Part shown: one piece after another, positions 34,984 through 49,388 of the stretch | Layout: the number at the start of each line of letters is the position of its first letter | Numbering within the stretch: the stretch's first letter is position 1 | Origin: Escherichia coli | GTDB lineage: Bacteria; Pseudomonadota; Gammaproteobacteria; Enterobacterales; Enterobacteriaceae | Direction: 5' to 3' (one strand) | NCBI GenBank assembly: GCA_005400705.1 | Contig: GCA_005400705.1_4079.1 | Length of the DNA stretch: 64,000 bases | Notes under the pieces: model-generated | What the model saw: the letters and a program-made list of their open reading frames with translations, nothing else | Databases searched by the model: none | Told to the model about the DNA's origin: nothing | Position numbers and translations under genes: made by a program

Positions 34984-36111
34984 TCAAAAAGGTAAATCAA
35001 TTTGCTTAGTAATAATAGTATCTAACGGTATTGAACACAATGAGAAATTCTTTCCACCCGTATTTTCAGGATTATATCCATTCATCCATACATTATTACC
35101 TTCGTAAAATGTATTCCAGTATAAAGCCCCACTATATCGTGTATTCGAATTGAACGATGGAAAGTTGAATTCTTGGAATGATGTAAAATATGGAATGGAA
35201 CTTGAACTACTTCCCGTAAATGGGGTATACCCAGTTGCTATTAGTTTGTTTGTATCTGCATTAATTAAAAATACAACACTAGTCGAATAGTCCAACGAAT
35301 CAGGATGATATATATTACTCATATCACCTATAGTAAAACCAACATCAAAAACTTTACTATGTGCACCACTACCAGCAAAAGTAGTTCCAGTTGCATATAT
35401 TTTATTATCAGATGTTATCATTACAAAACCAGCACCAGAAACAAAACTGCATTTTATATCATAAGATATATCATCAAACAACGGAACAAATGTGGTTGCA
35501 TCACCCGATGTTGCTTTAACTTGAAAGCTGTTATTTGAACCTGAACCATATACAGTTCCATCGTTTTTAATCTTAAACAATGTATCGCCAAGGTAACCGC
35601 CAAATATATTATCCACATTAGTGTCAAGTACAGTCCACGCTGAAACATAATTTTTATGTCCTAAACCTAATGCACCACTTCGATTCCATCCTCTTCCATA
35701 AAGTGTTCCGTCTTTCATTAATATAAATGCTGTATAACCACATAACATTTTTTTAATTTGGGTAACATCTATACCAGTGAAATACACACCCCAGTCAGTA
35801 TATCCTTGTTGGAAAGTATCAGAATTCGTGAATGCATATGTTGAACCTGAACCATATATTTTATCACCTTTAATAACAACGGAAAACAATCCTAACCATA
35901 AGTCATCAACTTCAGTTGTGATTTGTTGAACTGCTCCTAACGATACAAACTGTGTACTTAAACCCGCATTATAGTTTGAATCTTCACCGTGTGCATATAC
36001 AGTGCCATCTTGCATTAGAAACATTTCAAGAGTGTAACTAACAACACTTTTCTTTATATTATTAACTTCGATTATATTCCCATAATCAAACATTCTAACA
36101 AAAGGTAACAT
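34984..36111 (-). CDS. RCC1-like repeat protein with MLPFVRMFDYGN leader, paralog 7
   Basis: 375 aa; GALGLG motif. Confidence 0.7.
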   Translation of the reverse strand: MLPFVRMFDYGNIIEVNNIKKSVVSYTLEMFLMQDGTVYAHGEDSNYNAGLSTQFVSLGAVQQITTEVDDLWLGLFSVVIKGDKIYGSGSTYAFTNSDTFQQGYTDWGVYFTGIDVTQIKKMLCGYTAFILMKDGTLYGRGWNRSGALGLGHKNYVSAWTVLDTNVDNIFGGYLGDTLFKIKNDGTVYGSGSNNSFQVKATSGDATTFVPLFDDISYDIKCSFVSGAGFVMITSDNKIYATGTTFAGSGAHSKVFDVGFTIGDMSNIYHPDSLDYSTSVVFLINADTNKLIATGYTPFTGSSSSSIPYFTSFQEFNFPSFNSNTRYSGALYWNTFYEGNNVWMNGYNPENTGGKNFSLCSIPLDTIITKQIDLPF

Positions 36112-36183
36112 AATTCCCTCCTTTATTCATTATACTTTATTTAATACAAATAAGAATTCCTGTATCGAGTACTGGCATTCAAT
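36112..36183 (-). promoter_or_regulatory. family cassette (hairpin, TATAAT, AAGGAGG)
   Basis: gccagtactcgatacagg hairpin-like, tataatgaataaaggagg. Confidence 0.45.
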
Positions 36184-37332
36184 TTATTGTAAAAAGGACA
36201 TATCTACTTCTGTATAACTAAGAATGTTTTGACCAGCAATTCCACCCATTACTACTATTGCATACCCACAATAATATAATTTCCCAGTGTCCGTAAGTAT
36301 AAGTGAACCAGAAGGTGTTCTTACCAAATTACACGAACTATTAAAAGAAGTATACGAAGGAGTATAGGAGTACTGATCAATATTATTACCAACACCTAAT
36401 TGACCACCCCTATTCGAACCAGATGCATAAAGTACTTCATCTGCTTTGACAATATGTGATGCCATGTTACCAACACATGCATATACACCATATACCCCTG
36501 TACTCAATAATGTAGGAGTCTTGTATTGAATATCAGTACTAGTAGATGTTCCACCTGTGCCAAATTCATTACCATATTGTGCTCCGTACTGCTTCCCACA
36601 TGCGTACAAATTATTATCGGACTTAATAAAAAATGTACTCTGATAACTTACATCAAAATCTATAACATCCGAAGAAATCATCGTTACCCCAGTAATCGAA
36701 GTTTGATTACCAGTACCCAACTGGTAGTAATAGTTAAAACCACAACCCCATAAAGTATTATCTTCTCGCAAATAAATGTTACCAACAGCCTTTTTAACAG
36801 ATGTTATAGTACTGACCTTCTTGAAGGTATTAAATGAATCAATGTTAGTACCATCTCCAAAGGAGGATATGTTCGATGCGTTATTAGCACCACAACAATA
36901 TAATGTCCCATCCTTCAGTACTAAATTTACCTTCATATCATTAAAACTGCTCATATACTCAATATCAGATACACTAATACCACCTGATGTTATCCACGTA
37001 GTACAGTCCGTCCATAACGTCTTCCTATCAGTTACCCCAGTAAATGCCTCCGTGTTACCAGTGATAAACACTTTACCAGTACCCTTTTCTTCATACAATT
37101 GACAATCACTACTGTTATCTTCCAATAAAACCCTCTGTACATTCTCTGCACAAAGAATAAATTTACTCGATGCTACACCTGTTCCAGTACCCCAATTCGT
37201 CGCAGAAGATGCATACAACTTATGTGTTAGTGTATCATGCAAATACATAGAACCACTAGAATATATTTTAAAACGCCCAGAGTTGGTAGGTGCTTCATTC
37301 CCATAATCAAACATTCTAACAAAAGGTAACAT
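36184..37332 (-). CDS. RCC1-like repeat protein with MLPFVRMFDYGN leader, paralog 8
   Basis: 382 aa; GQLGVGNN motif; first gene of the minus-strand block. Confidence 0.7.
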   Translation of the reverse strand: MLPFVRMFDYGNEAPTNSGRFKIYSSGSMYLHDTLTHKLYASSATNWGTGTGVASSKFILCAENVQRVLLEDNSSDCQLYEEKGTGKVFITGNTEAFTGVTDRKTLWTDCTTWITSGGISVSDIEYMSSFNDMKVNLVLKDGTLYCCGANNASNISSFGDGTNIDSFNTFKKVSTITSVKKAVGNIYLREDNTLWGCGFNYYYQLGTGNQTSITGVTMISSDVIDFDVSYQSTFFIKSDNNLYACGKQYGAQYGNEFGTGGTSTSTDIQYKTPTLLSTGVYGVYACVGNMASHIVKADEVLYASGSNRGGQLGVGNNIDQYSYTPSYTSFNSSCNLVRTPSGSLILTDTGKLYYCGYAIVVMGGIAGQNILSYTEVDMSFLQ

Positions 37333-37429: not shown

Positions 37430-37657
37430 ATGACAGCTACACTTAAGTACTACATTAATACTCTAAATGAACTAGAGTACGCGAAGTTTCTCGCGGATTG
37501 TTCGTGGCTAATAGAGCTAAAAACACATAACAGTACTGGATGTAACCTTATGCTGAACAGTGCACTTGATACCCTTGTAGTGAGTATTTTACACAGCAAC
37601 ATCTGCGTGGATAGCAATAAACAATTATCAAAAATCTTAGTACTGGTAGCTATATGA
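37430..37657 (+). CDS. small protein, tandem family A
   Basis: 75 aa, RBS aaggag. Confidence 0.5.
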   Translation: MTATLKYYINTLNELEYAKFLADCSWLIELKTHNSTGCNLMLNSALDTLVVSILHSNICVDSNKQLSKILVLVAI

Positions 37658-37866
37658 ACACTATGAACATTAAACAGTACTACATCGATGCACTACCAAC
37701 AAAAGGTCTACGAGAAAGCCTACTGTATACACAAAATAATTTTATACACTACAAACGTTATCCTAAACTCCTGAACTCGTACAGGAATAATAACATAAGA
37801 AATGCTTTACAAGGGGTAGAAAGTATGCAATACTATTACATCCTTACCCTTTTAATCGAGTACTAA
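37654..37866 (+). CDS. small protein, tandem family A
   Basis: 70 aa; QYYIDALP N-terminus, C-terminal LTLLIEY. Confidence 0.5.
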   Translation: MNTMNIKQYYIDALPTKGLRESLLYTQNNFIHYKRYPKLLNSYRNNNIRNALQGVESMQYYYILTLLIEY

Positions 37867-37867
37867 T

Positions 37868-38053
37868 ATGTATAAAGAATTCTACTGTAGTAAGCTGCAC
37901 AAACAATACAGAGATTCATTTCCCAATGAACCTATGGACATGAATAGTCCCTTTTATAATTTTGACTTCAGACTGGAGACACGTTATGCAATAGAACATC
38001 AATTTCCTGAAACTAAGTACTTAGCTATCATGAACCTCATCTTTAAGTTCTAA
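37868..38053 (+). CDS. small protein, tandem family A
   Basis: 61 aa. Confidence 0.45.
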   Translation: MYKEFYCSKLHKQYRDSFPNEPMDMNSPFYNFDFRLETRYAIEHQFPETKYLAIMNLIFKF

Positions 38054-38274
38054 AAGAGTACTATATGAAAACTATGAACATTCATCAGTACTACTTAGAT
38101 ATTCTCCCTAAAGATGTGCAGAACATCCTTAAACAAGAATTCAGTACTTTAAAAAAACCTTAAAAGATCCGCACCGAATGTACTCATCCTGCACCAAATA
38201 AATGTAGTTGATAATATTCTACAAGGTGTACCAGGAACCGAGTACTTTAATATAGTAAGGCTAATTACATTACA

Positions 38275-38460
38275 ATGAATCATATAAGCTACTATTACCA
38301 AAAACTATCCGACCGAGACAAGTACAGCCACAACTCCCATGTATGGTACTACAAACGCGGTAGTATAAGGGACAAACAACATTACTTCTGTACTGCTATA
38401 AAAGAAACACTAACAACTAAGTACACGTACAGAGCAGTACTGAAACTTATTGATATGTAA
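38275..38460 (+). CDS. small protein, tandem family A
   Basis: 61 aa; C-terminal YTYRAVLKLIDM. Confidence 0.45.
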   Translation: MNHISYYYQKLSDRDKYSHNSHVWYYKRGSIRDKQHYFCTAIKETLTTKYTYRAVLKLIDM

Positions 38461-38470
38461 AGAGAATACT

Positions 38471-38656
38471 ATGAATACATTTGAGTACTATACAAATAAA
38501 CTATCTATGCCAGAAAGATCTCATCTCTATGTGTGGAGAAATGCGTATAAAAGCGGCAATAAACTTATACAAAGAAATTCCCTTACAGTGTGTACAAATT
38601 TAATTAAAGCAGAGTACCGCACATATATTGAAGTACTGAAACTAATCTCTATCTAA
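38471..38656 (+). CDS. small protein, tandem family A
   Basis: 61 aa from ATG 38471; C-terminal EVLKLISI. Confidence 0.45.
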   Translation: MNTFEYYTNKLSMPERSHLYVWRNAYKSGNKLIQRNSLTVCTNLIKAEYRTYIEVLKLISI

Positions 38657-38664
38657 GGTACTCT

Positions 38665-38844
38665 ATGCAAGAATTCTATATCTATAAACTTCAGCACAAA
38701 GATAGATACAACTATAATAAATTCCAAAGGTACTACACAGTCGGGAACAAAAGAGATAAAAAACGATACTTTCTATCATGTACAGTAGAAGCACAAAACG
38801 AAAAGTACACGTACAGAGAAGTACTGAAACTCATCTCAATCTAA
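38665..38844 (+). CDS. small protein, tandem family A
   Basis: 59 aa (below ORF-track cutoff); C-terminal YTYREVLKLISI. Confidence 0.4.
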   Translation: MQEFYIYKLQHKDRYNYNKFQRYYTVGNKRDKKRYFLSCTVEAQNEKYTYREVLKLISI

Positions 38845-38852
38845 GGAATAAT

Positions 38853-39032
38853 ATGCAAGAATACTATATAGAACACATAAGCATTAAAGACCGTTTCATG
38901 TACGACACCTTCGTGAAGTACTACAACCTGGCAACTAACAGTACTAAAAATATTAATCTCAATAGCTGCATTCATCACGCACTAACAAAAGATAATCCCT
39001 TCAGGGAAATCCTCGCACTAGCATCTGTATAA
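38853..39032 (+). CDS. small protein, tandem family A
   Basis: 59 aa from ATG 38853 with RBS aagga. Confidence 0.45.
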   Translation: MQEYYIEHISIKDRFMYDTFVKYYNLATNSTKNINLNSCIHHALTKDNPFREILALASV

Positions 39033-39042
39033 AGGAAACCAA

Positions 39043-39702
39043 ATGAAACTTAATGCACACAGCAAACAATACCTTAAGCACTTTAAGTACCTCAACAGTA
39101 TTCAAGCAGAATCTATTACATCTGCATATACGTATCACCCTAATGTACTAAAGAAACGAAATAAAAAGAAAAAATCCAGAAATGTTCTCGTATCTAAGAA
39201 CCTCAAATCGTACTTGAAGAAAAATAATATAGCTCTTGCTTTTATTAATATCTATAATACTGATTTAAAAGTATTGAGTACTAATACCAGCACAAAAGCA
39301 CTAAAGAATGCATCTATCTATATACACATGGATAATATCCCGTGCACTATAATTCTATCTTTCGGGAATGTATACTTCTTCGGGAATTGTAATAGCACCC
39401 ATGATATCAGTACTGCACAATTCCAAATCGGCGATATGTACTGCATGGGTTCAGAAAAAATACACGATAACATGCACTTCTTCCAAAAGCAACGTACTAA
39501 CGAAACTGATACAGTACTGCAATTCCTCAAAGAATTACAAAACAAAGAATTATCCGAGGAAGAAGAATTCATGTACAGTACTGTAATCGATAATCCAGAA
39601 CTCTATAAAAACGCGTACAATCTAACAAAACATGTACAGGAACTTATCAGTACTGATAAGAAATTTCATCACCTCATTACGTATATTTCAAACTATGTAT
39701 AA
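39043..39702 (+). CDS. hypothetical protein
   Basis: 219 aa, RBS aaggaaa; interrupts family A array. Confidence 0.55.
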   Translation: MKLNAHSKQYLKHFKYLNSIQAESITSAYTYHPNVLKKRNKKKKSRNVLVSKNLKSYLKKNNIALAFINIYNTDLKVLSTNTSTKALKNASIYIHMDNIPCTIILSFGNVYFFGNCNSTHDISTAQFQIGDMYCMGSEKIHDNMHFFQKQRTNETDTVLQFLKELQNKELSEEEEFMYSTVIDNPELYKNAYNLTKHVQELISTDKKFHHLITYISNYV

Positions 39703-39877
39703 AGAATACTACAAAGATAAAATCCCAATGCATCTACAACACCATATACCAAACGTTGCATTGGGTATCAAAGATCACGCAAAGATAATGTTCCAACAAT
39801 GTACTAAGTACACGCTCATATACGATGATAATCCATATATGCTGTACTACGTAGTAATGCTAACATTCAGGTACTAA
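39695..39877 (+). CDS. small protein, tandem family A
   Basis: 60 aa from ATG 39695; MYKEYYKDKIP ... LTFRY. Confidence 0.45.
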   Translation: MYKEYYKDKIPMHLQHHIPNVALGIKDHAKIMFQQCTKYTLIYDDNPYMLYYVVMLTFRY

Positions 39878-39878
39878 T

Positions 39879-40058
39879 ATGAATACTTATAAAGAATTCT
39901 ACCTCTCGTACCTTAATTCCGATATAGTAACATCCAATACATTCAGTACTAAAATTATCTATAATGAATTAATGAAAGAATGTATTAAAGGTGCTATTAA
40001 CCCTAAAGATACGTATGACTTGTACTATGCAGTACTAACCCTTGTTTTCACGAAATAA
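39879..40058 (+). CDS. small protein, tandem family A
   Basis: 59 aa (below cutoff); TAATATG overlap. Confidence 0.4.
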   Translation: MNTYKEFYLSYLNSDIVTSNTFSTKIIYNELMKECIKGAINPKDTYDLYYAVLTLVFTK

Positions 40059-40066
40059 CACATAAT

Positions 40067-40258
40067 ATGAATAACCACAAAGAATACTACATAGAGAAAC
40101 TCCCAATGTATCTCCAACACCTTGTACCAACAGAACCATTGGGTATAGAAAAAAACTACGAAAAAGACTACTTCATTCAGTGCACTAAATCCTCGATATA
40201 TATTGAAGACTATAATCGAGTACTGTATCACATCCTTTTACTAATATATAGGTACTAA
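40067..40258 (+). CDS. small protein, tandem family A
   Basis: 63 aa; C-terminal LLLIYRY. Confidence 0.5.
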   Translation: MNNHKEYYIEKLPMYLQHLVPTEPLGIEKNYEKDYFIQCTKSSIYIEDYNRVLYHILLLIYRY

Positions 40259-40259
40259 T

Positions 40260-40442
40260 ATGCACAAAGAATACTACACACAATTTCTCCCCAGCATTTT
40301 TGAACACTACGCCAGATACAAAGTCCCTATGGATAACGATTTGGCAGTACTGGGATTCAATAACTGCATAGAACGAAGTATAGAAAATAGTAGTAGTTAT
40401 GACCAGCTATATAACACTATCCTACTTATATTCAGGTACTAA
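40260..40442 (+). CDS. small protein, tandem family A
   Basis: 60 aa; C-terminal ILLIFRY. Confidence 0.5.
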   Translation: MHKEYYTQFLPSIFEHYARYKVPMDNDLAVLGFNNCIERSIENSSSYDQLYNTILLIFRY

Positions 40443-40443
40443 T

Positions 40444-40629
40444 ATGCATAAAGAATACTACACACAATTTGTTAAAGGGAACTACAAACATGCCGTACCC
40501 AGAACCCCTTTAAATTCTCATGACCCAAGTACTATATTCTTGTTTAATGACGCAATACGTACAGTACTCAATACTAAAGATGAAGATGTGCAGTACGTAT
40601 TCTTACTATTACTTATATACAGACACTAA
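40444..40629 (+). CDS. small protein, tandem family A
   Basis: 61 aa from ATG 40444; C-terminal LLLLIYRH. Confidence 0.45.
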   Translation: MHKEYYTQFVKGNYKHAVPRTPLNSHDPSTIFLFNDAIRTVLNTKDEDVQYVFLLLLIYRH

Positions 40630-40634
40630 CTAAT

Positions 40635-40844
40635 ATGAATAAAGAACATAAAGAATTCTACTCCAAATACATAAGCCCCTCAGAACAAATGTTTCTAAGG
40701 ACTACTCCACCTTTAAGTACTAATACATTTTTCGGCAGAGTATGCTACAATAATTGTATTCAAATGACTTTAAACGCAAACGAAGATGGTAACAGTACTA
40801 ACCTGTACTCAGGTATCATAGGTATACTATTCCTGTATGAATAA
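40635..40844 (+). CDS. small protein, tandem family A
   Basis: 69 aa. Confidence 0.45.
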   Translation: MNKEHKEFYSKYISPSEQMFLRTTPPLSTNTFFGRVCYNNCIQMTLNANEDGNSTNLYSGIIGILFLYE

Positions 40845-41025
40845 TTACAAAGACTTCTATTTGAATACACTACCTACTGTACTTTCTCTAAGTGCTCAAT
40901 GTAAAATCCCGCTGGATAATGCTTACGCCAGATATAGCTATTCCATAACTGTTAATCGATGTATAGAGAATCATTGCAGTACTAACCAGTACTATAACAT
41001 AATCCTACTTATATTCAGGTACTAA
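40837..41025 (+). CDS. small protein, tandem family A
   Basis: 62 aa; C-terminal ILLIFRY. Confidence 0.5.
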   Translation: MNNYKDFYLNTLPTVLSLSAQCKIPLDNAYARYSYSITVNRCIENHCSTNQYYNIILLIFRY

Positions 41026-41026
41026 T

Positions 41027-41209
41027 ATGAATAAAGAACATAAAGAATTCTATATACGAAAACTAACATTCGTCCCCGTAAGAATATATAAAGAATGCGA
41101 CCCAAGATTATACCTATGGCACTTCAATGAGTGCATAAAAGATTCTATATACCATAAGAACTATAAAGAACAATTGTGCTCAGTACTAACACTAGTACTA
41201 TCATATTAA
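41027..41209 (+). CDS. small protein, tandem family A
   Basis: 60 aa. Confidence 0.45.
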   Translation: MNKEHKEFYIRKLTFVPVRIYKECDPRLYLWHFNECIKDSIYHKNYKEQLCSVLTLVLSY

Positions 41210-41224
41210 TTAATAGAGAATACT

Positions 41225-41416
41225 ATGTATAAAAACTTCTATATAAGTAAACTAAAAGAAAATGAACAAGTATGGATTAGATCTATAATTCCACTGGCAT
41301 TTAATAGATATGCATTTAACAGATGTACCGAGATTGCTATAGACCCTTATAATATTAAAGAGAATGTACAGTATAATCAGTACTACTATATCTTAATGCT
41401 TATATATAGAAAGTAA
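41225..41416 (+). CDS. small protein, tandem family A
   Basis: 63 aa; C-terminal ILMLIYRK. Confidence 0.45.
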   Translation: MYKNFYISKLKENEQVWIRSIIPLAFNRYAFNRCTEIAIDPYNIKENVQYNQYYYILMLIYRK

Positions 41417-42054
41417 TTAAACACAAGTAGACAGGGGAAGCTCCTAGTGAACAACCTTTATGTACAGGCGAATTGTTAAAATTCAGCCTGGACAAATGCG
41501 ATCACTAGGATTCTCCCCAGGCTAAACCCCGTAATCATAGGTAGTCATAAGTAATCATATATAAACATTTATATGAGCACCGTAGAATCACAGAATGATT
41601 ATATATGATTCAGTACTGATTAGTATAGACAAGATTGCTCAAGAATGCACGGAAATGTGTGTGAATGATTCAGTACTGATATCCCACTAAGTAGGCAGAG
41701 GAAGTCTGCCGTACTTTTTAGTTTCCAAGCTCCTTTTCCATTTTTCAAATTACATCAAATGTAATCAAAAGTAATCACGCAATGATTAGTACTGAATTAT
41801 TACTTTCACCTTAATTACAATTACCCTTTTACCCTTCGGGGTAAAATTCCATTACCCCTTGAGGCTCCAGCAAAAAGTTGGTTAGTACTCCATCCTAAAT
41901 CTCGATCCTAAAAATTTTGGAGTACCTATGAAATAAAAGTTGGATCTTCGAAAGTTGAAATTTACGTTGGGACGTTTATGATTTGTGGGATATAATGATG
42001 TTTGTAGTCGGGTAGTTCTCAAGAATATCAGTACTGAATGATGAAAGAAAGCTA

Positions 42055-42082
42055 TTGACTTTATGATTCAGTACTGTATAAT
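42055..42082 (+). promoter_or_regulatory. orphan promoter TTGACT-16-TATAAT with no ORF downstream
   Basis: ttgact 42055-42060, tataat 42077-42082, followed by gttttacat as in the PeSL-type promoters. Confidence 0.5.
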
Positions 42083-42088
42083 GTTTTA

Positions 42089-42200
42089 CATAGAGAGATG
42101 AGTTGCCGCAAACAATTCATTCACTCTACTTCCTGTCGTGAGACAGTACAGAAAGATAGTTCCTCCTATGGGTGGTACATCTTTTAGAACCTCTTTTTTC
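42089..42200 (+). ncRNA. candidate small RNA
   Basis: About 110 nt from the orphan promoter to the T-run ctcttttttc at 42191-42200, no ORF. Confidence 0.25.
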
Positions 42201-42410
42201 GTAATATGAACAGTACTGATATTAACAGAATGGTGTCAGTACTGATTTTAATTTAATGCATTATGCCACCAGCACAAGCTGGTGGATTCCCTCTAACAGT
42301 ATTCAGTACTACATGATGGTCTTCATCCTCCTAGGGTAACATAGTGAGGGCTATGATGGCAGTACTGAATACTCCCTTTCAAAAGATAGATCTATGGTAT
42401 AGTACTGACG

Positions 42411-42600
42411 GATTTTGGGCGTAGTTACCCTGGATGGATTTTGGACGTAGATATGTCTAGCCCTCCAGAAGTCTGGAAGTAAAGATGGCTATCCATCTAG
42501 ACGGCTAAACGGCTAGATTTCTGGATGGCTGGATGGCTAGACGTTTGGACGGCTAAACGGCTAGATGGTTACACGTCTGGAAGTATAGACGGCTAAATCA
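42411..42600. repeat. iteron-like direct repeats
   Basis: gacggctaaacggctagat twice (42500-42518, 42548-42566); ggatggct three times; gtctggaagta twice; gattttgg(g/a)cgtag twice. Confidence 0.6.
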
Positions 42601-43337
42601 AAATTTTATTTTGTTTTTTCCAATAGTTCCCCTACCGCGTGGGGATAGTTTCCCCGCAGTATCTGGAGTTAGATTTTTCTGAATCTGGAATCATTATCTT
42701 ATAAACTGGGGGCAATGTCAACCGCCTGGACGGATATTTTTAAAAATTTTTTCAGTACTGAATTTTGGGCGTAACTATGCACCCGGTGGGCTTGAGTCTT
42801 TCTCGACTTGATGGAACTATTATACAGTACTGGAAAAATAAAGCAATACCCTGGAAGCAAAAAAGTTTTAATTAATTTGCTTGCTATCCTGGGCCGGACT
42901 ATGGTACTATATTTCAGTACTGAGAAAGTGCGTTTACCTGCTAGGGTGCGGGAGTGTATCCTTTTTTTATATCTTGAATTTTGGGCGTAATTCCGCACCC
43001 TCTGGGGTTTCCGCTTTCTCGCGTCTATGTAGTAATTATACGCTTTTTCAGGATCAAGTCAATACCTAAAAACAAAATAATTGAAAATAATTTAACGCGT
43101 TTAAACGGCCCGTAAAGCCCTGGAATGATTGGAATGGTGCAAATGTATAGCTTAGGTGTATTAATGCGTTAGAATGCGTCTGAGGCCGTTTTACGGGGTA
43201 TAGGGATGATTTGGTGGATTGATTCAGTACTGAATGATAGTACTACTATATAGAAAGATAGTTCCCCTGAATGGTTGCAGTACTGAATGATAGTTCCCCT
43301 ATATAGAAAGAAAACTATTTTAAAAGTATTTGTAGAA

Positions 43338-43402
43338 AGTACTTGCAAACTAAGTTTAACGGCGTATAATGTTTTACATCGAGAGCGGGAACACTTCCCG
43401 CT
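43338..43402 (+). promoter_or_regulatory. PeSL-like cassette (promoter AGTACTTGCAAAC..TATAAT, stem-loop GCGGGAA-CAC-TTCCCGC)
   Basis: tataat 43365-43370 within gtataatgttttacatc; hairpin 43385-43401. Confidence 0.6.
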
Positions 43403-43425
43403 ACATATTACGAGAGATTAAAACG

Positions 43426-43788
43426 ATGGCGACTCAAATCACTAAAATTATTGCTAACCTGGTTAACTTTCGCGACGAGATGAAAGATCTTCCGGCAGAA
43501 ACGGTAAAAATTCACATTTCAGCTTATCGGGAACTTATTGCAATGTTACCGCTTAAGCGTGAACAATACGCCGCGACCGTGATGCTTGATGCGATGATCC
43601 ATAAGATGATCGCCAGTGATTTAACGATGGTTTATCAGTATATGGGCGAAAATTTCGCGGTGTATAGTAAACCAGTACCAGGAATGGAAAGTACAGAAGT
43701 ATTACACGGTTTAAATTTAAAACAAGATGCATGGGATAATATGCCTCGTTTCCTGGTATGGGCTGACAGTGGCAAGATTTACGAATAA
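43426..43788 (+). CDS. hypothetical protein
   Basis: 120 aa from ATG 43426 downstream of the cassette hairpin; ORF-track start 43369 is the ATG inside tataATGtttt. Confidence 0.55.
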   Translation: MATQITKIIANLVNFRDEMKDLPAETVKIHISAYRELIAMLPLKREQYAATVMLDAMIHKMIASDLTMVYQYMGENFAVYSKPVPGMESTEVLHGLNLKQDAWDNMPRFLVWADSGKIYE

Positions 43789-43797
43789 GTTTTAGAA

Positions 43798-43860
43798 AGT
43801 ACTTGCAAACTAAGTTTAAAAGCGTATAATGTTTTACATCAGGTGGGGAATAGTTCCCCA
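43798..43860 (+). promoter_or_regulatory. PeSL-like cassette
   Basis: agtacttgcaaactaagtttaaaagcgtataat then hairpin tggggaa-tag-ttcccca 43844-43860. Confidence 0.6.
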
Positions 43861-43881
43861 CTATATAAGAGGATTAAAAAA

Positions 43882-44121
43882 ATGGCTAAATCAAAAATGT
43901 TCTTAGGTCACAAAAACAAAACTCATTGGAATGTAAGCCTTTGGATTAATAACGATGAGTCATTGTACCGGTTGGCCCAGGACTTTATTAACGATAGCAC
44001 TAATCGCAATGATGCGGCCCGTCATATGATGTTATTTTTAGAACAGACTGGACAAGATAAAACACCGGACGGATTCAAATATAGCACTACTGCGATCCGT
44101 GCGGCGATGGTTGGAATGTAA
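43882..44121 (+). CDS. hypothetical protein
   Basis: 79 aa from ATG 43882, RBS gagga. Confidence 0.55.
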   Translation: MAKSKMFLGHKNKTHWNVSLWINNDESLYRLAQDFINDSTNRNDAARHMMLFLEQTGQDKTPDGFKYSTTAIRAAMVGM

Positions 44122-44136
44122 TAGAATATATTTAAA

Positions 44137-44170
44137 GTACTATCGCAAAAAATGATAGTACTTTATAATA
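44137..44170 (+). promoter_or_regulatory. promoter with upstream palindrome AGTACTATC...GATAGTACT
   Basis: Palindrome 44137-44163, tataat 44165-44170; same design at 55759-55794. Confidence 0.5.
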
Positions 44171-44206
44171 GTGTTTTATTCATACACAAACGATAAGGGC
44201 AACAGC

Positions 44207-44473
44207 ATGAATATTAAGTATTTTGCGACGCGTGAACAAGCTCGGATCGCCGCACGCCAGGACGGGGCAACGTTTAAAGATATGGGCGTACAATCGGAAC
44301 GTGGTAAACGTTGGGCCATTATAAAGCGTAGTACCGCCAGATCATTACAGTACTGGTTAGCGGCGTTAAAAAGTCCTGATAGTGTATCGCGTCGAGTGGT
44401 AGAAATAAAGCTCGACCGAAAGGGCAACCGCGTGACCGTGTACCGTACTAAAAAGATAGCAGTACTTGAATAA
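44207..44473 (+). CDS. hypothetical protein (paralog of 55839 product)
   Basis: 88 aa; FATREQARIAARQDGATFKDMG ... DRKGNRVTVY shared with the 55839-56234 product. Confidence 0.55.
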   Translation: MNIKYFATREQARIAARQDGATFKDMGVQSERGKRWAIIKRSTARSLQYWLAALKSPDSVSRRVVEIKLDRKGNRVTVYRTKKIAVLE

Positions 44474-44474
44474 A

Positions 44475-44538
44475 AGTACTTGCATACTATGTTTAAAGGC
44501 GTATAATGTTTTACATCGAGAGCGGGAACACTTCCCGC
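44475..44538 (+). promoter_or_regulatory. PeSL-like cassette
   Basis: aaagtacttgcatactatgtttaaaggcgtataat, hairpin gcgggaacacttcccgc 44522-44538. Confidence 0.6.
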
Positions 44539-44559
44539 CTATAACCTGGAGTAATAAAA

Positions 44560-44790
44560 ATGACTAATATGTATATGACTGAAGTTAAAACTGTAAAAGA
44601 TACTACCACGAATAAAACTACTTACTTACAGCGGATCTGTGGTGTCTGGCAACGTATCAGCAAAATAAAGTACTATAAATTGACATCACATGCTAACCGT
44701 TCGGATTCATTCAGTACTGAAATAAAAGGTAATAAAGTACACCAATACGGCACTTATTATTATTATAGCCTGGATGCGATTGCAGTATAA
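44560..44790 (+). CDS. hypothetical protein
   Basis: 76 aa, RBS ggag. Confidence 0.55.
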   Translation: MTNMYMTEVKTVKDTTTNKTTYLQRICGVWQRISKIKYYKLTSHANRSDSFSTEIKGNKVHQYGTYYYYSLDAIAV

Positions 44791-44820
44791 GCAGTTTACA
44801 AATCTTTACAATTGCCGGTA

Positions 44821-44849
44821 TTGACTTATTTTGTCAGTACTGGCATAAT
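44821..44849 (+). promoter_or_regulatory. promoter TTGACT-17-CATAAT (AGTACTGG class)
   Basis: ttgact 44821-44826, agtactggcataat. Confidence 0.45.
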
Positions 44850-45032
44850 GTATTCATTGGCAGATAAGCCGTAGCCCATAGGGTGCGGGAGTGTATCTAT
44901 AGAAAAAGTAGTTTATTACAGTTACAATTGTGCACCCGGTGGGTTAGCTGTTGTCATGGGGTATATTATACCAGTACTGGATAGTGCTGTCAATACCTTT
45001 TTACTATTCAGTACTGAAAACTATTTTTAAAA

Positions 45033-45065
45033 AGTACTTGCAAACTATGTTTAAAGGCGTATAAT
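45033..45065 (+). promoter_or_regulatory. PeSL-type promoter driving the structured element
   Basis: agtacttgcaaactatgtttaaaggcgtataat. Confidence 0.55.
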
Positions 45066-45150
45066 GTTTTACATCAGGACGGGGAACGAAATAAGTAACT
45101 TCCCGTTAAGTAGCCCAGGAGTAAGGCACACGAAAAACTCCCCTGATAAA
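45066..45150 (+). ncRNA. candidate structured small RNA, copy A (identical copy at 54907-54990)
   Basis: No ORF; closing helix atcagg...cctgat and inner hairpin acgggga...ttcccgt; about 100 nt identical in both copies. Confidence 0.35.
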
Positions 45151-45155
45151 ATAGT

Positions 45156-45183
45156 TTGACAAATGTTTTTAAAAGCGTATAAT
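45156..45183 (+). promoter_or_regulatory. sigma70-type promoter TTGACA-16-TATAAT
   Basis: ttgaca 45156-45161, tataat 45178-45183. Confidence 0.55.
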
Positions 45184-45215
45184 ACTTACATCAACTACTG
45201 AATGAGGGTTACAAA

Positions 45216-45827
45216 ATGAAAACTATCACTACTACTACTTTCGTTATGGCTTTTTCTGAATTGAACGCAGAACAACAAACGTCAGCTATCGAACTGGTTC
45301 GGGATCGGGAACGTTCAAGCGGTGATGATTTCTTTTCTGAGTCAGTGATCGAGTACTATAAAGAAACAGTACTACCAGAATATGGAATTGATGACGCTGA
45401 TTTGCAATTCAGTGGTTTTTGGTCGCAGGGTGACGGTGCATCAATCAGTACTGACCACGTTGACGCTGTGAAGTTTTTACGCAAGATTAAAGCATTAACT
45501 AAGTATCGTTCTATCCGTCACCTGCTGAATGAAGATGATTTGGCGATGAGTGTAAAGCGTTCTCACTCCCACTACTCGCATGAAAACACTGTAAGCGGGT
45601 ACATTGAATCGGGGTACACTGATTTAACCGCAAAACAAGAAACGTTAGTTAATGAGCTTGAGGAACTACTCACTGAAACTATTCGTGAATTATCCCGCAA
45701 GTTGTACCGTGATTTAGAGAATGCATATGAGGATCAATTCACTACTGAAAACATTACGGCACTGATTGAGGGTAACGAATATCAATTCAATGTTATTGAT
45801 GGCGTAGTAGAATCTATCGAATATTAA
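45216..45827 (+). CDS. hypothetical acidic protein
   Basis: 203 aa, RBS gagggt. Confidence 0.6.
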   Translation: MKTITTTTFVMAFSELNAEQQTSAIELVRDRERSSGDDFFSESVIEYYKETVLPEYGIDDADLQFSGFWSQGDGASISTDHVDAVKFLRKIKALTKYRSIRHLLNEDDLAMSVKRSHSHYSHENTVSGYIESGYTDLTAKQETLVNELEELLTETIRELSRKLYRDLENAYEDQFTTENITALIEGNEYQFNVIDGVVESIEY

Positions 45828-45883
45828 TTCAGTACTGAATCAATGGCGGGAGTGGTTCCCGCCTATAACCAGGAGTAAGCATC

Positions 45884-46117
45884 ATGATCGAACAAATTCA
45901 AACGACCACAAGCCGGAGCGGAACGAAAGTACATTACATCGCTGATACTGATAAAGGTGTACCCTATTGTGCTGTACACGTAAATACTGACGGTGACTAT
46001 TGGTTAACTGTATACGGGCGTTACTCGTTTGCTTTTAGTGCACATTGTAAGATCCTGGAAGTAGTGAAGCCTACCGGTAAGAATATCACGCCGGGAAAAT
46101 GTTTTACTAAGCACTAA
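45884..46117 (+). CDS. hypothetical protein (paralog of 47039 product)
   Basis: 77 aa; GVPYCAVHVNT.G.YW.TVYG.YSF ... PTGKNIT shared with 47039. Confidence 0.6.
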   Translation: MIEQIQTTTSRSGTKVHYIADTDKGVPYCAVHVNTDGDYWLTVYGRYSFAFSAHCKILEVVKPTGKNITPGKCFTKH

Positions 46118-46118
46118 A

Positions 46119-46185
46119 AAGTACTTGCATACTAAGTTTAAAAGCGTATAATACTTTATATCGAGGCGGGGGAATGGTTCCCGCC
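46119..46185 (+). promoter_or_regulatory. PeSL-like cassette
   Basis: aaagtacttgcatactaagtttaaaagcgtataat, hairpin ggcggggg-aatgg-ttcccgcc. Confidence 0.6.
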
Positions 46186-46203
46186 TTTACTGAGGATTAT
46201 CTA

Positions 46204-46491
46204 ATGAGCAAAGTAATTAACTATACAGTACTAAGCAAGTCATTATCTATTAGCCAGTGCACCGATGGTTTTTGGCTGTACGATGAAACGCGTGGCATGA
46301 ATTTAGCTATGCGGGAGAAAACTGCTGAGGCGGCGTATTTACAAGCCCTGGAATACTACCAGGAACGTTTAAAGGAAGTAGAAAACAATTATCAAAATTT
46401 AAAAGAGAAAGTAGATAATTTCGTTTGTCAATTCGTTGACGATGACGAGGAAGACGGGCACTACTGCAACCGTTGCGGATCTTACAATTAA
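46204..46491 (+). CDS. hypothetical protein
   Basis: 95 aa from ATG 46204; C-terminal CNRCGSYN. Confidence 0.5.
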   Translation: MSKVINYTVLSKSLSISQCTDGFWLYDETRGMNLAMREKTAEAAYLQALEYYQERLKEVENNYQNLKEKVDNFVCQFVDDDEEDGHYCNRCGSYN

Positions 46492-46554
46492 GTACTTGCA
46501 ATTAGTTTTCAGTACTGTATAATGGTTTACATCAAAGGGAGAAATGGTTCTCCC
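46491..46554 (+). promoter_or_regulatory. PeSL-like cassette
   Basis: agtacttgcaattagttttcagtactgtataat, hairpin gggaga-aatggt-tctccc. Confidence 0.6.
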
Positions 46555-46573
46555 TGGTAATGAGGAAAATAAA

Positions 46574-46795
46574 ATGGCTAATATCACTACTCTTTCCCAA
46601 CTGGAAGCACTGGTTAAATCTATGCGGGAACATGCCGACAAAATCGGCGTACAAGATCCAGCCGTTTGCTTCTGCGACGAATTGAATGATGATACCCTGG
46701 TAATAGCAGAAGTCCAGGACGTTTCTAACTATTCCTCGCGTTACACTGGCGGCGTAGCAAATAAAGGTGACTTCTGTTTATACCTTACAAAATAA
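46574..46795 (+). CDS. hypothetical protein
   Basis: 73 aa from ATG 46574, RBS gagga. Confidence 0.55.
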   Translation: MANITTLSQLEALVKSMREHADKIGVQDPAVCFCDELNDDTLVIAEVQDVSNYSSRYTGGVANKGDFCLYLTK

Positions 46796-46798
46796 CAA

Positions 46799-46836
46799 CG
46801 CGGGGAGATAATAACTCCCCGTTACTTTTTCAGTAC
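46799..46836 (+). terminator. intrinsic terminator
   Basis: cgcggggag-ataataa-ctccccg then ttacttttt. Confidence 0.6.
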
Positions 46837-46958
46837 TGAATCATTTAATAGACGGATCTCGGCACCCGGTGGGTTAGTGACTGTTTCGTCTTGATGTAGT
46901 AATTATGCCAGTACTGGATGCACTTGTCAACAATTATTTTTCAAATACTTTTTATTAA

Positions 46959-47017
46959 AATACTTGCAATTAGTTTTTAAACGCGTATAATGTTTTGCAT
47001 AGGGGGAGCGGTTCCCC
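46959..47017 (+). promoter_or_regulatory. PeSL-like cassette
   Basis: tacttgcaattagtttttaaacgcgtataat, hairpin gggga-gcggt-tcccc. Confidence 0.55.
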
Positions 47018-47038
47018 TGGTAACTAAGGAATAATAAA

Positions 47039-47275
47039 ATGCTTGAACAAATCAAATCAACGTCTTCGAATGTAACGGGAACGGTAGCACACTTTACTAG
47101 TGATGAATCGCGGGGCGTTCCCTATTGTGCTGTACATGTAAACACTGAGGGTAACTACTGGTTTACGGTTTACGGTTCATATTCATTTGGACGGCCAGGG
47201 CATCAAAAAATTCTGGATAAAGTACAGCCAACGGGTAAAAATATCACTGCTGAAATGTTTTATAAAAAATCATAA
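47039..47275 (+). CDS. hypothetical protein (paralog of 45884 product)
   Basis: 78 aa, RBS aagga. Confidence 0.6.
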   Translation: MLEQIKSTSSNVTGTVAHFTSDESRGVPYCAVHVNTEGNYWFTVYGSYSFGRPGHQKILDKVQPTGKNITAEMFYKKS

Positions 47276-47276
47276 A

Positions 47277-47339
47277 GTACTTGCAATTAGTTTTTAGTAC
47301 TGTATAATATTTTACATCGCAAGGGGGAGCGGTTCCCCC
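47277..47339 (+). promoter_or_regulatory. PeSL-like cassette
   Basis: aagtacttgcaattagtttttagtactgtataat, hairpin ggggga-gcggt-tccccc. Confidence 0.6.
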
Positions 47340-47359
47340 TGGTAACTAAGGATAATCAA

Positions 47360-47659
47360 ATGAAAATTGCAATCATCGCCCTGGCTTTATCTGTTTCCTC
47401 TTTCGCTGTTAATGCGTCATTAGATGTAAGTAGTGAAAAATTCATTCAGTGCACTGTTGCAATGACCGATGAAAGTACTGGCGAGATTGTTTTAAAGGAT
47501 TTAGAGATCCAGCCCGAAGCATTTAAAAACGGGCCGTTCCATGAAGAAGACGAAAAAGGTAGCACGACAATTTATTACGATGCAAGTACTAAACGCGGTT
47601 CGGTCACTGTTATGGATACTGAGAAAGTAACTCATACTGGCGTTATTAATTGCCGTTGA
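47360..47659 (+). CDS. secreted protein (signal peptide)
   Basis: 99 aa, signal peptide MKIAIIALALSVSSFAVNA. Confidence 0.55.
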   Translation: MKIAIIALALSVSSFAVNASLDVSSEKFIQCTVAMTDESTGEIVLKDLEIQPEAFKNGPFHEEDEKGSTTIYYDASTKRGSVTVMDTEKVTHTGVINCR

Positions 47660-47680
47660 TAGATACTACGGGGTAACATC

Positions 47681-47911
47681 ATGACTAAGCGAATTGTTTT
47701 ACTTAACGAAAGCAGTACTACACAACTACTTAACGCCGTGCATTATGATATTGAAACGAGCGTTAATCTTATCAGTACTGTAGTACTGTTGGACACTGGA
47801 AAGGTCGCCAATGATAAAGCGATTGCAGGTATACTAACGGATCTTGAGCCTGGTAGCAGTGCACCAATAACGTTAAATGGTAAAGTGTTTAATATTTTAC
47901 TCACTGATTAA
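47681..47911 (+). CDS. hypothetical protein
   Basis: 76 aa. Confidence 0.5.
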   Translation: MTKRIVLLNESSTTQLLNAVHYDIETSVNLISTVVLLDTGKVANDKAIAGILTDLEPGSSAPITLNGKVFNILLTD

Positions 47912-47917
47912 GTACAT

Positions 47918-47941
47918 AGCCCACCTGGTGGGCTTTTTTGT
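47918..47941 (+). terminator. intrinsic terminator
   Basis: agcccacc-t-ggtgggct then T6. Confidence 0.7.
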
Positions 47942-47992
47942 TTTTGTAGTATCGTAGTACTGAGATACTTTGAAAATAGTTTTAAAAAATAG

Positions 47993-48020
47993 TTGACATT
48001 ACCGCAGAAAAGCGTAGAAT
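47993..48020 (+). promoter_or_regulatory. sigma70-type promoter TTGACA-16-TAGAAT
   Basis: ttgaca 47993-47998, tagaat 48015-48020. Confidence 0.5.
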
Positions 48021-48143
48021 GTATTACATCAAGACGGGGAGCACTAAGTAGACCGCCAGTAAGTCGAACGAAAAACTGGACACGTCGAGAAAACTTTGAT
48101 ACACTAATAAACGTAAACTAAACTTTAATTGAGGATTTATAAA

Positions 48144-48626
48144 ATGGCTAATGTAAAATCATTCATCAAAGCACTGGTAGCAAATGAAACTAACGTCGCG
48201 GCAGAGATCCTGGCTGATCTGGATAACGATACCATGAAAGCGGTACGCAATAATTTTAACATCGCTTATAGTACTGCGAAAGAACTACAAGCAAATAAAG
48301 CGGCAGAAATTGAAGCGGCAAAGGCGGCCCGTGAAGCAGAACTACAAGCAACAATTGAAAGTATCCAGGCGGCAGTAGTTGGATTGGATCTGGAAGTAGT
48401 TACAGAGATGGCACAAAAAGCCCTGGCGGTTAAGTATGGGGAAGATAAGCCGGAATCTAAGCCTAAAAAATGGATTCAAAAACGTGTAGCGGTAGTACTG
48501 GACAACGGGGAAGAATATCTGATTCCGGTGCGTGGTAACTGCATTGCGGTAGTACTGGATGCGATTAACTCCAGTGGTATGACTCGCGAGGAATGGATCG
48601 AAGCTCATCGCAAAGTTGAAGCATAA
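48144..48626 (+). CDS. hypothetical protein
   Basis: 160 aa from ATG 48144 (RBS gagga); alternative start 48129. Confidence 0.55.
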   Translation: MANVKSFIKALVANETNVAAEILADLDNDTMKAVRNNFNIAYSTAKELQANKAAEIEAAKAAREAELQATIESIQAAVVGLDLEVVTEMAQKALAVKYGEDKPESKPKKWIQKRVAVVLDNGEEYLIPVRGNCIAVVLDAINSSGMTREEWIEAHRKVEA

Positions 48627-48647
48627 CAATTAAAGTACTGAATCACT

Positions 48648-48675
48648 AGCCCACCTTAAACGGTGGGCTTTTTTG
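48648..48675 (+). terminator. intrinsic terminator
   Basis: agcccacc-ttaaac-ggtgggct then T6. Confidence 0.7.
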
Positions 48676-48823
48676 TGTTTATCGTTTACCAGGCCACCAG
48701 CACCGCCTAGAAACGATTCTAACGCATTAAACTGATTATCTGATGCATTGCCCTAGCTGGTGGCGTTAAGGCTGTAAGAACGCGATTGAGAGCGTTTAAA
48801 GTATTTTGCAAAAAGTAATAAAA

Positions 48824-48888
48824 AGTACTTGCACGATTAAGAGATTAGCGTATAATGTTTTACATCGAGAGGGGGAAACGGTTCTCCT
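48824..48888 (+). promoter_or_regulatory. PeSL-like cassette
   Basis: aaagtacttgcacgattaagagattagcgtataat, hairpin ggggaa-acgg-ttctcc. Confidence 0.55.
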
Positions 48889-48911
48889 TCCAAATCAAAG
48901 GAATTAAAACA

Positions 48912-49139
48912 ATGGCTATCGTAATCACTCGCGTAACTGGTACTACTGGCAATTCTTCTACTGTTGCTGTAATTACTAATAAGAAAGGTGCGGAATTGCA
49001 TTTTGCAATGGATAAATGGGCCGTTAATGAGTTCGGTCAGTGGGCAAGTGTAGCATACATTGAAACCTATCAAGTGCCGTCGATTAGTTTAACTGATTTG
49101 GGCGTTGAGCGTATCCTTTGCCTGGATGAATTAAATTAA
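48912..49139 (+). CDS. hypothetical protein
   Basis: 75 aa from ATG 48912, RBS aaggaa. Confidence 0.55.
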   Translation: MAIVITRVTGTTGNSSTVAVITNKKGAELHFAMDKWAVNEFGQWASVAYIETYQVPSISLTDLGVERILCLDELN

Positions 49140-49140
49140 A

Positions 49141-49206
49141 AAAGTACTTGCAAAGTAAATCAGATAAAGTATAATACATTACATCAAGGGGAGAAATGGT
49201 TCTCCC
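49141..49206 (+). promoter_or_regulatory. PeSL-like cassette
   Basis: aaagtacttgcaaagtaaatcagataaagtataat, hairpin gggaga-aatggt-tctccc. Confidence 0.6.
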
Positions 49207-49225
49207 TGATAATGAGGAAACTAAT

Positions 49226-49369
49226 ATGAAAACTTGTCAATGTGGTAAAAAATCTATTACTGGTTTAAAGCGGGGCGTTGCACTTTGCCAGTACCATTAT
49301 AATTTACAAGTATGGGGTAAAGAATGGGCCGACCAGGTGGAAGCAGCAAAGAAAGCAAAAAGTAAGTAA
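49226..49369 (+). CDS. small Cys-containing protein
   Basis: 47 aa (below cutoff), RBS gagga; CQCG...C..H. Confidence 0.45.
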   Translation: MKTCQCGKKSITGLKRGVALCQYHYNLQVWGKEWADQVEAAKKAKSK

Positions 49370-49388
49370 AAATATTATCACAGTACTA

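Follow-up and report, generated by a model that had tools for sequence, protein, structure and literature searches.

Many large virulent phages (T5, SPO1 and the Rak2-like jumbo phages among them) have long exact terminal repeats, and the recognition, cutting and duplication of their ends are largely obscure. In T7 the terminal repeat of 160 bp is duplicated from a single junction copy by staggered nicks and extension of the 3' ends. The T7 left-end leader has no open reading frames (ORFs) and carries short repeat arrays and several strong host-polymerase promoters before the first early gene, with one promoter directed toward the junction. In T5 a 1.66-kb repeat-rich non-coding region, known as Repeat Region 3 or the injection stop, overruns the repeat boundary by 270 bp and contains DnaA boxes (10.1101/866236). 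Here we describe a 1.9-kb ORF-free stretch at positions 41417-43337 of a 64-kb piece of jumbo-phage DNA from an E. coli assembly (the window, i.e. all of the 64,000 nucleotides analysed). We consider it likely that this stretch is a non-coding control hub straddling the left boundary of a ~20-kb direct terminal repeat (DTR), and we give the account below, taken as a whole, with that same degree of confidence. The DTR itself has already been published, whereas the anatomy of the hub and its array of boxes resembling the operators of the methionine repressor MetJ (met boxes) appear to be undescribed: the words non-coding, intergenic, promoter and palindrome are all absent from the papers on the related phages fEgEco12 and Sharanji.

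The hub belongs with the boundary and leader regions of terminal repeats, of which T5 and T7 provide examples. With T5 it shares a conserved non-coding repeat-rich region of >1 kb, which straddles the boundary of a long repeat with an overrun of ~270 bp in both, is better conserved than the neighbouring genes and has clustered binding sites for a host protein, predicted ones in the case of the hub. However, T5 has paired DnaA boxes and the inverted repeats IRC/IRD, which are not found in the hub, and no met-box array was found in T5 itself. Moreover, two-step DNA transfer is linked with the T5 region, and the phages are unrelated (a 122-kb siphovirus and a ~350-kb myovirus). T5 is thus an architectural analogue only, since the hub has no DnaA boxes. 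The likeness to T7 lies in the exact ends with a direct terminal repeat, which here too may be duplicated from a single junction copy, and in the ORF-free leader with short repeat arrays, several strong host-type promoters before the first early gene and one promoter toward the junction. T7 differs in the size of the repeat (160 bp against ~20,000 bp) and in using its own RNA polymerase at the junction-directed promoter. Further features of note in the hub are a conserved promoter-hairpin unit, a genome-wide palindrome built into early promoters and an operator-like array, which would link the host repressor of methionine and S-adenosylmethionine (SAM) synthesis to a jumbo phage and to several unrelated phages.

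A similarity search identifies the source of the window as an Asteriusvirus (PBECO4/121Q/G17-like) jumbo phage with a genome of ~350 kb; the first guess, a T5-like phage with the iss region, was ruled out by the same search. Matches to the 1.9-kb stretch, with 85-97% identity (top match 96.9%, none identical), are found in 42 phage records, all of them Asteriusvirus jumbo myoviruses of E. coli or Salmonella with genomes of 310-386 kb (PBECO4, 121Q, G17, phAPEC6 and others). In the linear record of G17, bases 1-20,668 are repeated at 350,150-370,817, and the inner boundary of this repeat falls within the ORF-free stretch, at window 41690. The records of CRJP21, ELP-22, E9.1, fEgEco12, vB_Ec-M-J and BF17 open with AGTAGGCAGAGGAAGTCTGCC, which is window 41690, and the reverse complement of the G17 right end opens with it too; thus, seven records coincide at this position. 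The window aligns across both repeat boundaries, with the right one at 61683|61684, and holds the DTR on the plus strand as a single collapsed copy of 19,994 bp (41690-61683), filled with small early genes and flanked by unique DNA on both sides. The ends of relatives have been mapped with PhageTerm and restriction digests in fEgEco12 (repeat of 20,993 bp; PMC13070987), with PhageTerm in Sharanji (20,668 bp; PMC11895373) and from read coverage in G17 (PMC6563267). The DTR of the Klebsiella phage Muenster (Alcyoneusvirus) is 20,030 bp by PhageTerm, and the ends of Kae01 were mapped likewise. Hence, the proposal of the sequence-only reading that a packaging-initiation region or genome ends might lie here holds: a physical genome end is found inside the stretch, at 41689|41690. 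The separation of two compositional blocks that it described is also real, because the stretch is the DTR boundary; the GC content climbs from 0.33 to 0.38-0.42 across the region.

The lack of plausible ORFs that had been claimed from the letters is genuine, and nothing in the stretch qualifies as a protein-coding gene, be it spliced, frameshifted or small. Its longest ORF (99 aa, 42699-42998, minus strand) differs among the relatives by nonsynonymous changes only, and a 29-aa ORF located 3' of the promoter at 42055 carries +1/-1 indels among them. The Pfam search of the ORFs of the stretch (99, 62, 60, 59 and 46 aa) gave no match. Several GenBank records of relatives (OR699282.2, PP886230.1, OR699188.1 and others) list 5-8 'hypothetical proteins' within the stretch, and other records call none; these are probably spurious artefacts of automatic annotation. 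The absence of known RNAs is confirmed as well, with 0 tRNAs in a scan of the 64-kb window and 0 matches up to E = 1 in a scan of 40500-44500 with the Rfam 15 covariance models.

The comparison of genera points to the sequence at which the genome end is cut. The putative terminase cut site at the left DTR boundary (41671-41692, plus strand) reads CAGTACTGATATCCCACTA^AGT, with the cut at 41689|41690. The left junction is ...TTCAGTACTGATATCCCACTA|AGTAGG in the window and ...TTCAGTACTGATATGCCACTA|AGTCCG in Muenster, so that the Asteriusvirus and Muenster both have ...CAGTACTGATATSCCACTA|AGT. In Kae01/Munch it is ...CAGTACTtacccccttCCGCTA|TATC, i.e. CCGCTA|, and in XbC2 ...CAGTACTGaacccccttCCACTA|TATC, i.e. 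CCACTA|. The left cut context CAGTACTG-N-CCRCTA^ is thus common to the other genera (Muenster, Kae01/Munch and XbC2), and the CAGTACTG palindrome stands 11 nt ahead of the left cut in several of them. At the right boundary, CT|TAGC is found in window/G17, Muenster and Kae01 amid otherwise diverged sequence; the complementary strand reads GCTA^AG, and in the window (61675-61692, minus strand, boundary 61683|61684) it ends ...GTCGCTA^AG, the mirror of the left cut site. Since CT|TAGC stands at the right and CCRCTA^ at the left, RCTA lies directly before the boundary when one reads 5' to 3' into the repeat from either side. The GAAGTC/GACTTC motif near the termini was dropped as a signal common to both boundaries, because its register differs between left and right and between the genera.

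We suggest that these sites are used as follows. Replicating concatemers would have one copy of the repeat per junction, and the packaging nuclease would nick after RCTA at each side, in the strand that enters the repeat. Extension of both 3' ends across the repeat would leave each of the two neighbouring genomes with a full, flush-ended copy, which is a duplication of the T7 type. The RCTA^ symmetry is read directly from the sequences, whereas the nicking and the fill-in are the interpretation that we put on it. To our knowledge, inverted cut-site symmetry of the RCTA^ kind is not a described feature of T7. The hub therefore offers a testable cut-site model from the comparison across genera, with inward RCTA^ at both boundaries and CAGTACTG next to the left cut.

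Beyond the cut site, the records of Muenster, Erwinia phage pEa_SNUABM_12 (an Eneladusvirus; pEa12), Salmonella phage Munch and XbC2 open with 1.3-1.8 kb of gene-free DNA. The islands that these records and the window have in common are collinear: island A, the octamer array and island D. Island A (41865-41931) is an inverted repeat, GTACTCCA-N26-TGGAGTAC, kept in Munch, XbC2 and pEa12. Island D (42963-43042) is 88-96% identical between the genera; the fEgEco12 paper gives whole-genome average nucleotide identities of less than 30% for the Munch group and for the Eneladusviruses (PMC13070987).

The most conserved element of the hub across genera is the D2 unit (42997-43062, minus strand). It consists of the promoter TTGACT-16-TATAAT (43062-43035) and a leader with two hairpins, CGC-GAGAAA-GCG (43023-43012) and ACCC-CAGA-GGGT (43008-42997). 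The paralogous D1 unit (42781-42846, minus strand) combines a leftward promoter TTGCTT-16-TATAAT, with CAGTACTG in the spacer, and the same kind of double-hairpin leader. D3 (42915-42969, plus strand) is a partial inverted copy of the leader with a terminator-like hairpin and T-run (42943-42969), and it is convergent with D2. Among 14 distinct D-leader sequences from five genera 95.9% of the cells are paired. In hairpin 1, whose purine loop is conserved, compensatory changes are seen at each of the three pairs (CGC/GCG, GTC/GAC, CGA/TCG, CGG/CCG). The observed covariation values are reached in 0 of 500 shuffles, and the signal is lost when the pairing partners are slid. Covariation of this kind is more easily reconciled with a structured leader RNA or a single-stranded hairpin than with a protein site on duplex DNA. 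In IMG/VR, strict exact-pattern scans for the D unit found 4 loci and the degenerate ones mostly chance matches; after nhmmer filtering the useful contigs were those of jumbo phages only.

The nut sites of lambda-type phages and the put sites of HK022 are leader RNA elements with features of this kind. The D units likewise place small covarying stem-loops with a conserved purine-rich loop just 3' of an early promoter. However, they have no boxA and stems of only 3-4 bp, and no N-like protein was identified, so we speak of a resemblance, not of membership.

The D units are part of a wider set of promoters. Three promoter-like sites in the hub score at least 11/12, against 0.12 expected, and three were reached in 0 of 300 shuffles. 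One of them is the promoter at 42055-42082 (plus strand, TTGACT-16-TATAAT, 11/12, CAGTACTG in the spacer), which the sequence-only reading correctly saw as complete and as having no gene downstream, and wrongly as an orphan. It opens a series of 23 early promoters filling the repeat, and is hence no oddity. This near-identical, host-type class, AAAGTACTTGCA-N17-TATAATGTTTTACAT, has 25 members on the plus strand of the window, of which 23 lie within the DTR, and the DTR is thus an early-gene block. In the relative PA5oct, RNA sequencing showed that the genes of the repeat are highly transcribed early and that the phage relies on the host polymerase (PMC7318152). A further leftward early-class promoter with CAGTACTG in its spacer, recovered as a match to the D-unit profile, stands among the rightward repeat genes (46846-46939, minus strand).

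The 42055 promoter would give an untranslated, strongly structured transcript (42089-42290, plus strand, z = -4.9), ending at a GC hairpin at 42263-42286 that is annotated as a terminator in G17. Part of the pairing predicted in this RNA is between copies of CAGTACTG. The loop of the hairpin (42271-42278) has ACAA in the window, CRJP21, E9.1, vB_Ec-M-J and BF17, and TTGT in fEgEco12 and G17, which suggests loop flipping at a DNA inverted repeat. We suggest that after infection the hub serves as the leader of the early region, in which the small early genes of the repeat would be driven by 23 host-type promoters, starting with the rightward one of the hub. The conserved leftward promoters would produce short structured leader RNAs reading toward the end, with possible roles in packaging or replication priming or in regulation.

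These transcripts bring up the reading of the hub as chiefly a cluster of small non-coding RNA genes, in which the repeats and hairpins would be RNA structure rather than DNA sites. At least three strong promoters without genes, the folds predicted for the 42089-42300 RNA (z = -4.9) and the D2-D3 RNA (z = -4.4), the covariation of the D leader and the two abundant non-coding RNAs of the PA5oct terminal repeat (PMC7318152) speak for it. On the other hand, Rfam gave no match up to E = 1, the predicted fold of D3 by itself has ordinary stability (z = -0.6) and much of the predicted pairing is that of palindromic CAGTACTG copies with one another. Moreover, a pure RNA cluster would account for the promoters and the hairpins and leave unexplained the array, the cut site and the palindromes, for which DNA sites are the better interpretation. 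We consider this reading unlikely. The nest of small RNAs that was once proposed has partial support: in its favour are the gene-less promoters, the covarying double-hairpin leader and a strongly structured stretch of 200 nt, and against it is the lack of any known RNA family.

The octamer array may connect the hub to the host. It occupies 42443-42594 and consists of 16-19 units in a gap-free 8-bp register with the consensus AGAYGKCT. The cluster of direct repeats described by the sequence-only reading is really this strict tandem array: GACGGCTAAACGGCTAGAT does occur twice (42500 and 42548), and so does GTCTGGAAGTA (42471 and 42575), but GGATGGCT is exact twice and not three times. The autocorrelation is 0.57-0.59 at lags of 8, 16 and 24 and ~0.2 at other lags, and within the Asteriusviruses the length of the array varies by steps of 8 nt (128, 136, 144 and 152 nt). 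The units resemble those bound by the MetJ repressor, which binds tandem 8-bp met boxes with the consensus AGACGTCT (PMC4239095, PMC3413123). The best score over eight boxes is 48/64 for the array, against 33 or less in 20 shuffled windows and 31 or less elsewhere in the window. The mean match over 16 boxes is 5.88/8, and E. coli operators scored in the same way give 6.0 (metJ/metB, four boxes) and 5.2 (metF, five boxes). The idea of a protein-binding array is thus supported by the 8-bp periodicity, the met-box match and the dense CAGTACTG palindromes.

Like E. coli MetJ operators, the array has contiguous in-register 8-bp boxes of the same consensus and an equal match (5.9 against 5.2-6.0 of 8). 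E. coli, the host of this phage group, falls in an order that possesses MetJ (PMC4239095). The described chromosomal operators differ in that they overlap the promoters of met genes and have two or more boxes (PMC4239095), the two scored here having 4 and 5, whereas the hub array has 16-19 boxes and stands in a phage terminal-repeat leader. It overlaps no recognised promoter; the nearest promoter-like site, TTGACA-17-GATAAT (42693-42721, minus strand, 11/12), begins ~90 nt upstream and reads leftward into the array. We suggest that the array is a platform of 16-19 operator-like sites, most probably bound cooperatively by the host MetJ-SAM complex, as judged from its sequence. Such binding could titrate MetJ, could sense the methionine/SAM state of the host or could build a nucleoprotein structure.

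Similar arrays are found in other phages. Among the relatives of the hub, pEa12 has 18 units and XbC2 (Mimasvirus, OP292654.1) 16. Long met-box-like arrays of 10-29 units, with means of 5.2-6.5/8, are present in PR1, AhSzq-1, Pontus and PGT2. The T5-like Vibrio phage Pontus (Demerecviridae) has 17 units near the start of its record (468-603, mean 6.2/8), and the T5-like Aeromonas phage AhSzq-1 has 29 units (108799-109030, mean 6.1/8). The T5-like Providencia phage PR1 carries 9-10 near-perfect boxes (9612-9691) within a 1.2-kb ORF-free stretch that straddles its repeat boundary, and the E. coli podovirus PGT2 has 10 units at positions 38-117, near the record start. PR1, Pontus and AhSzq-1 are thus similar to the hub in having such arrays in ORF-free DNA, at the terminal-repeat boundary in PR1 and near the record start in Pontus; they differ in belonging to unrelated families, and beyond the arrays no part of the hub surfaced in them in similarity searches. 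We found no published interpretation of these three arrays, and literature searches for MetJ together with phage terminal repeats returned nothing relevant. A query built from E. coli met boxes alone finds arrays only in phages of Aeromonas, Pseudoalteromonas, Providencia, Salmonella (an Asteriusvirus), Vibrio and Escherichia, all of which belong to orders that possess MetJ (PMC4239095).

Several points weigh against this account. The ends of the present isolate are inferred from homology to relatives at ~98% identity, and the seven coincident starts are not fully independent, as later records may have been re-oriented to earlier ones. The RCTA^ core is short, the right boundaries come from three lineages only and the polarity of nicking is deduced. 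The covariation of the D leader is moderate evidence, with stems of 3-4 bp and a structure proposed from the same sequences that are used to assess it. As for the array, G is commoner than the consensus T at position 6 of the box. XbC2 has its 16 units, yet its listed host is Xanthomonas, of an order without MetJ, so that either the host assignment or the MetJ reading is in need of checking. Muenster and Munch, in turn, have hosts with MetJ, and they have no array despite retaining the cut site and the D units. Cutting and packaging thus do not require the array, which has the look of an exchangeable module for interaction with the host.

The last points bear on the possibility that the array is bound by a phage protein (a ribbon-helix-helix protein or the small terminase subunit) and not by host MetJ, its likeness to met boxes being convergent. 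Ribbon-helix-helix proteins, such as omega and ParG, typically bind short repeats in tandem. MetJ and ParG are treated as the same fold class (PMC3413123). The array of XbC2 and the proximity of the arrays of several phages to genome ends or repeat boundaries also agree with a phage binder. However, arrays occur in three unrelated phage families, which are unlikely to share one DNA-binding protein; all hosts other than Xanthomonas are in MetJ-bearing orders (PMC4239095), AGACGTCT is matched as well as in authentic operators, and the sister genera package with the same cut site in the absence of the array. We take this possibility seriously, but think it rather unlikely.

With MetJ as the preferred binder, we make one bolder proposal, which we regard as tentative. 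The hub may act as a decoy or sensor for global repressors of the host. Unrelated terminal-repeat phages of MetJ-bearing bacteria would have independently gained super-arrays of 10-29 boxes, which might soak up MetJ-SAM during replication, thus de-repressing methionine/SAM synthesis of the host, or might read the SAM status; the sister genera would use Fur-box-like sites instead, and the mirrored RCTA^ nick sites would define the duplication of the 20-kb repeat. If MetJ does bind the array, it would be an example of a phage with a large array of host-repressor sites and would suggest why other phages, too, have similar repeat arrays in their terminal-repeat leaders. We note that Fur-box-like palindromes matching GATAATGATAATCATTATC at 15-16 of 19 positions are present in Muenster (787-840, 1079 and 1306), Munch (776-800) and pEa12 (1042). 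In these sister genera the palindromes are positioned where the hub has its met-box array, a short way downstream of the D units. No Fur boxes of at least 14/19 are found in the hub of the window.

An IHF-consensus match (AATCAAAATTTTA), the only one in the hub, and an AT-rich tract (42596-42625) follow directly after the array. This arrangement, with promoters reading into AT-rich DNA and a local minimum of the cumulative GC skew at 41-42 kb, agrees with a replication origin, in which the octamers would be iterons for a phage initiator, the AT-rich tract would unwind and transcripts from the flanking promoters would activate or prime replication, as at T4 and T7 origins. The iteron origin was among the roles initially considered and does not stand up well: the units are contiguous and of 8 bp, not iterons of 17-22 bp in helical phase; no DnaA box (TTATCCACA) at 8/9 or better lies within 41417-43337; no initiator-like gene adjoins, the first repeat genes having no known function; and Muenster and Munch retain the cut site and D units without the array. 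The skew is uninformative, because its change coincides with the change of gene class and with the repeat boundary. Just upstream, at 37500-41416, there are ~20 small plus-strand ORFs of ~60 aa with a GC skew of -0.17 to -0.22, opposite to that of other plus-strand genes, and this is why the cumulative minimum sits on the hub. We consider an origin at this place very unlikely.

An injection stop of the T5 type is, in our opinion, equally improbable. According to it, the ~20-kb repeat would enter the cell first, the transfer would pause at the hub with host protein bound to it, and early proteins would release the pause. It draws on the T5-like architecture of the hub (10.1101/866236), on the met-box array of the T5-like PR1 in the equivalent ORF-free boundary region and on the packing of the repeat with early genes. 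However, the hub has no DnaA boxes (none at 8/9 or better), and the early genes are transcribed away from it, so the hub would enter last of the repeat. In addition, no A1/A2-like proteins are recognised among the first ten repeat genes, the only ones checked, and two-step transfer was never reported for this clade.

The CAGTACTG palindrome, found ahead of the left cut and in promoter spacers, is a genome-wide motif and is not specific to the hub. At 74 copies against 0.88 expected it is the commonest 8-mer of the 64-kb window (e.g. at 6107, 20771, 46510, 50918 and 58388), and its core AGTACT has 299 copies against 21.7 expected. The hub is its densest cluster, with 12 copies per 1.9 kb and no more than 7 elsewhere in the window. 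The density is 0.76/kb in coding DNA, where two reading frames are used, 2.4/kb in non-coding DNA outside the hub and 6.2/kb in the hub. Of the at least 17 hub copies counted by the sequence-only reading, 12 are exact and 4 have one mismatch, and the number 17 is true for the AGTACT core. In about a dozen promoters the palindrome abuts the -10 hexamer, as CAGTACTGTATAAT, and AGTACT also flanks the -35 element of the early class. A dimeric protein occupying the promoter spacers is the most economical reading of this pattern. Such a protein, concentrated on the hub, would probably shut off the early promoters via their spacers. Every Pfam or PHROGs family matched by the first ten repeat genes is of unknown function, and none of these genes is thus a candidate for the binder. 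Literature searches for CAGTACTG or AGTACT in jumbo phages returned nothing relevant.

Smaller elements surround the cut. The last 273 bp ahead of the repeat (41417-41689) form an ORF-free unique-side flank with 10-bp repeats (GTAATCATAA, 2.9 copies, 41531-41559) and two ATGATTCAGTACTGA sites (41604-41619 and 41664-41679). On the opposite side of the cut, kindred 10-bp repeats (TCAAATGTAA, 3.3 copies) are located at 41745-41777. At the very start of the repeat a terminator-like hairpin GGCAGAGGAAGTCTGCC, followed by a T-run (41694-41720, plus strand), would block read-in from the upstream unique genes. The perfect 8-bp hairpin reported near 41826 is present as TTTTACCC-TTCG-GGGTAAAA at 41827-41846. 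At the other end of the hub two 44-nt direct repeats (43215-43311, 84% identical), each containing the palindrome with flank CAGTACTGAATGATAGT and TATATAGAAAGA, stand just upstream of the promoter of the first gene. A related TATATAGAAAG box closes the last upstream gene region (41401-41413). The first repeat gene with its promoter (43343-43370) spans 43343-43788 on the plus strand, has its likely start at 43426 and belongs to phrog_7352. The genes of the window lie on the plus strand apart from nine tandem paralogues of 369-418 aa (~380 aa) on the minus strand (27679-37332), which mostly have a terminator of their own after each gene. In the annotation of G17 this family is labelled 'DNA condensation protein' or RCC1-like (COG5184).

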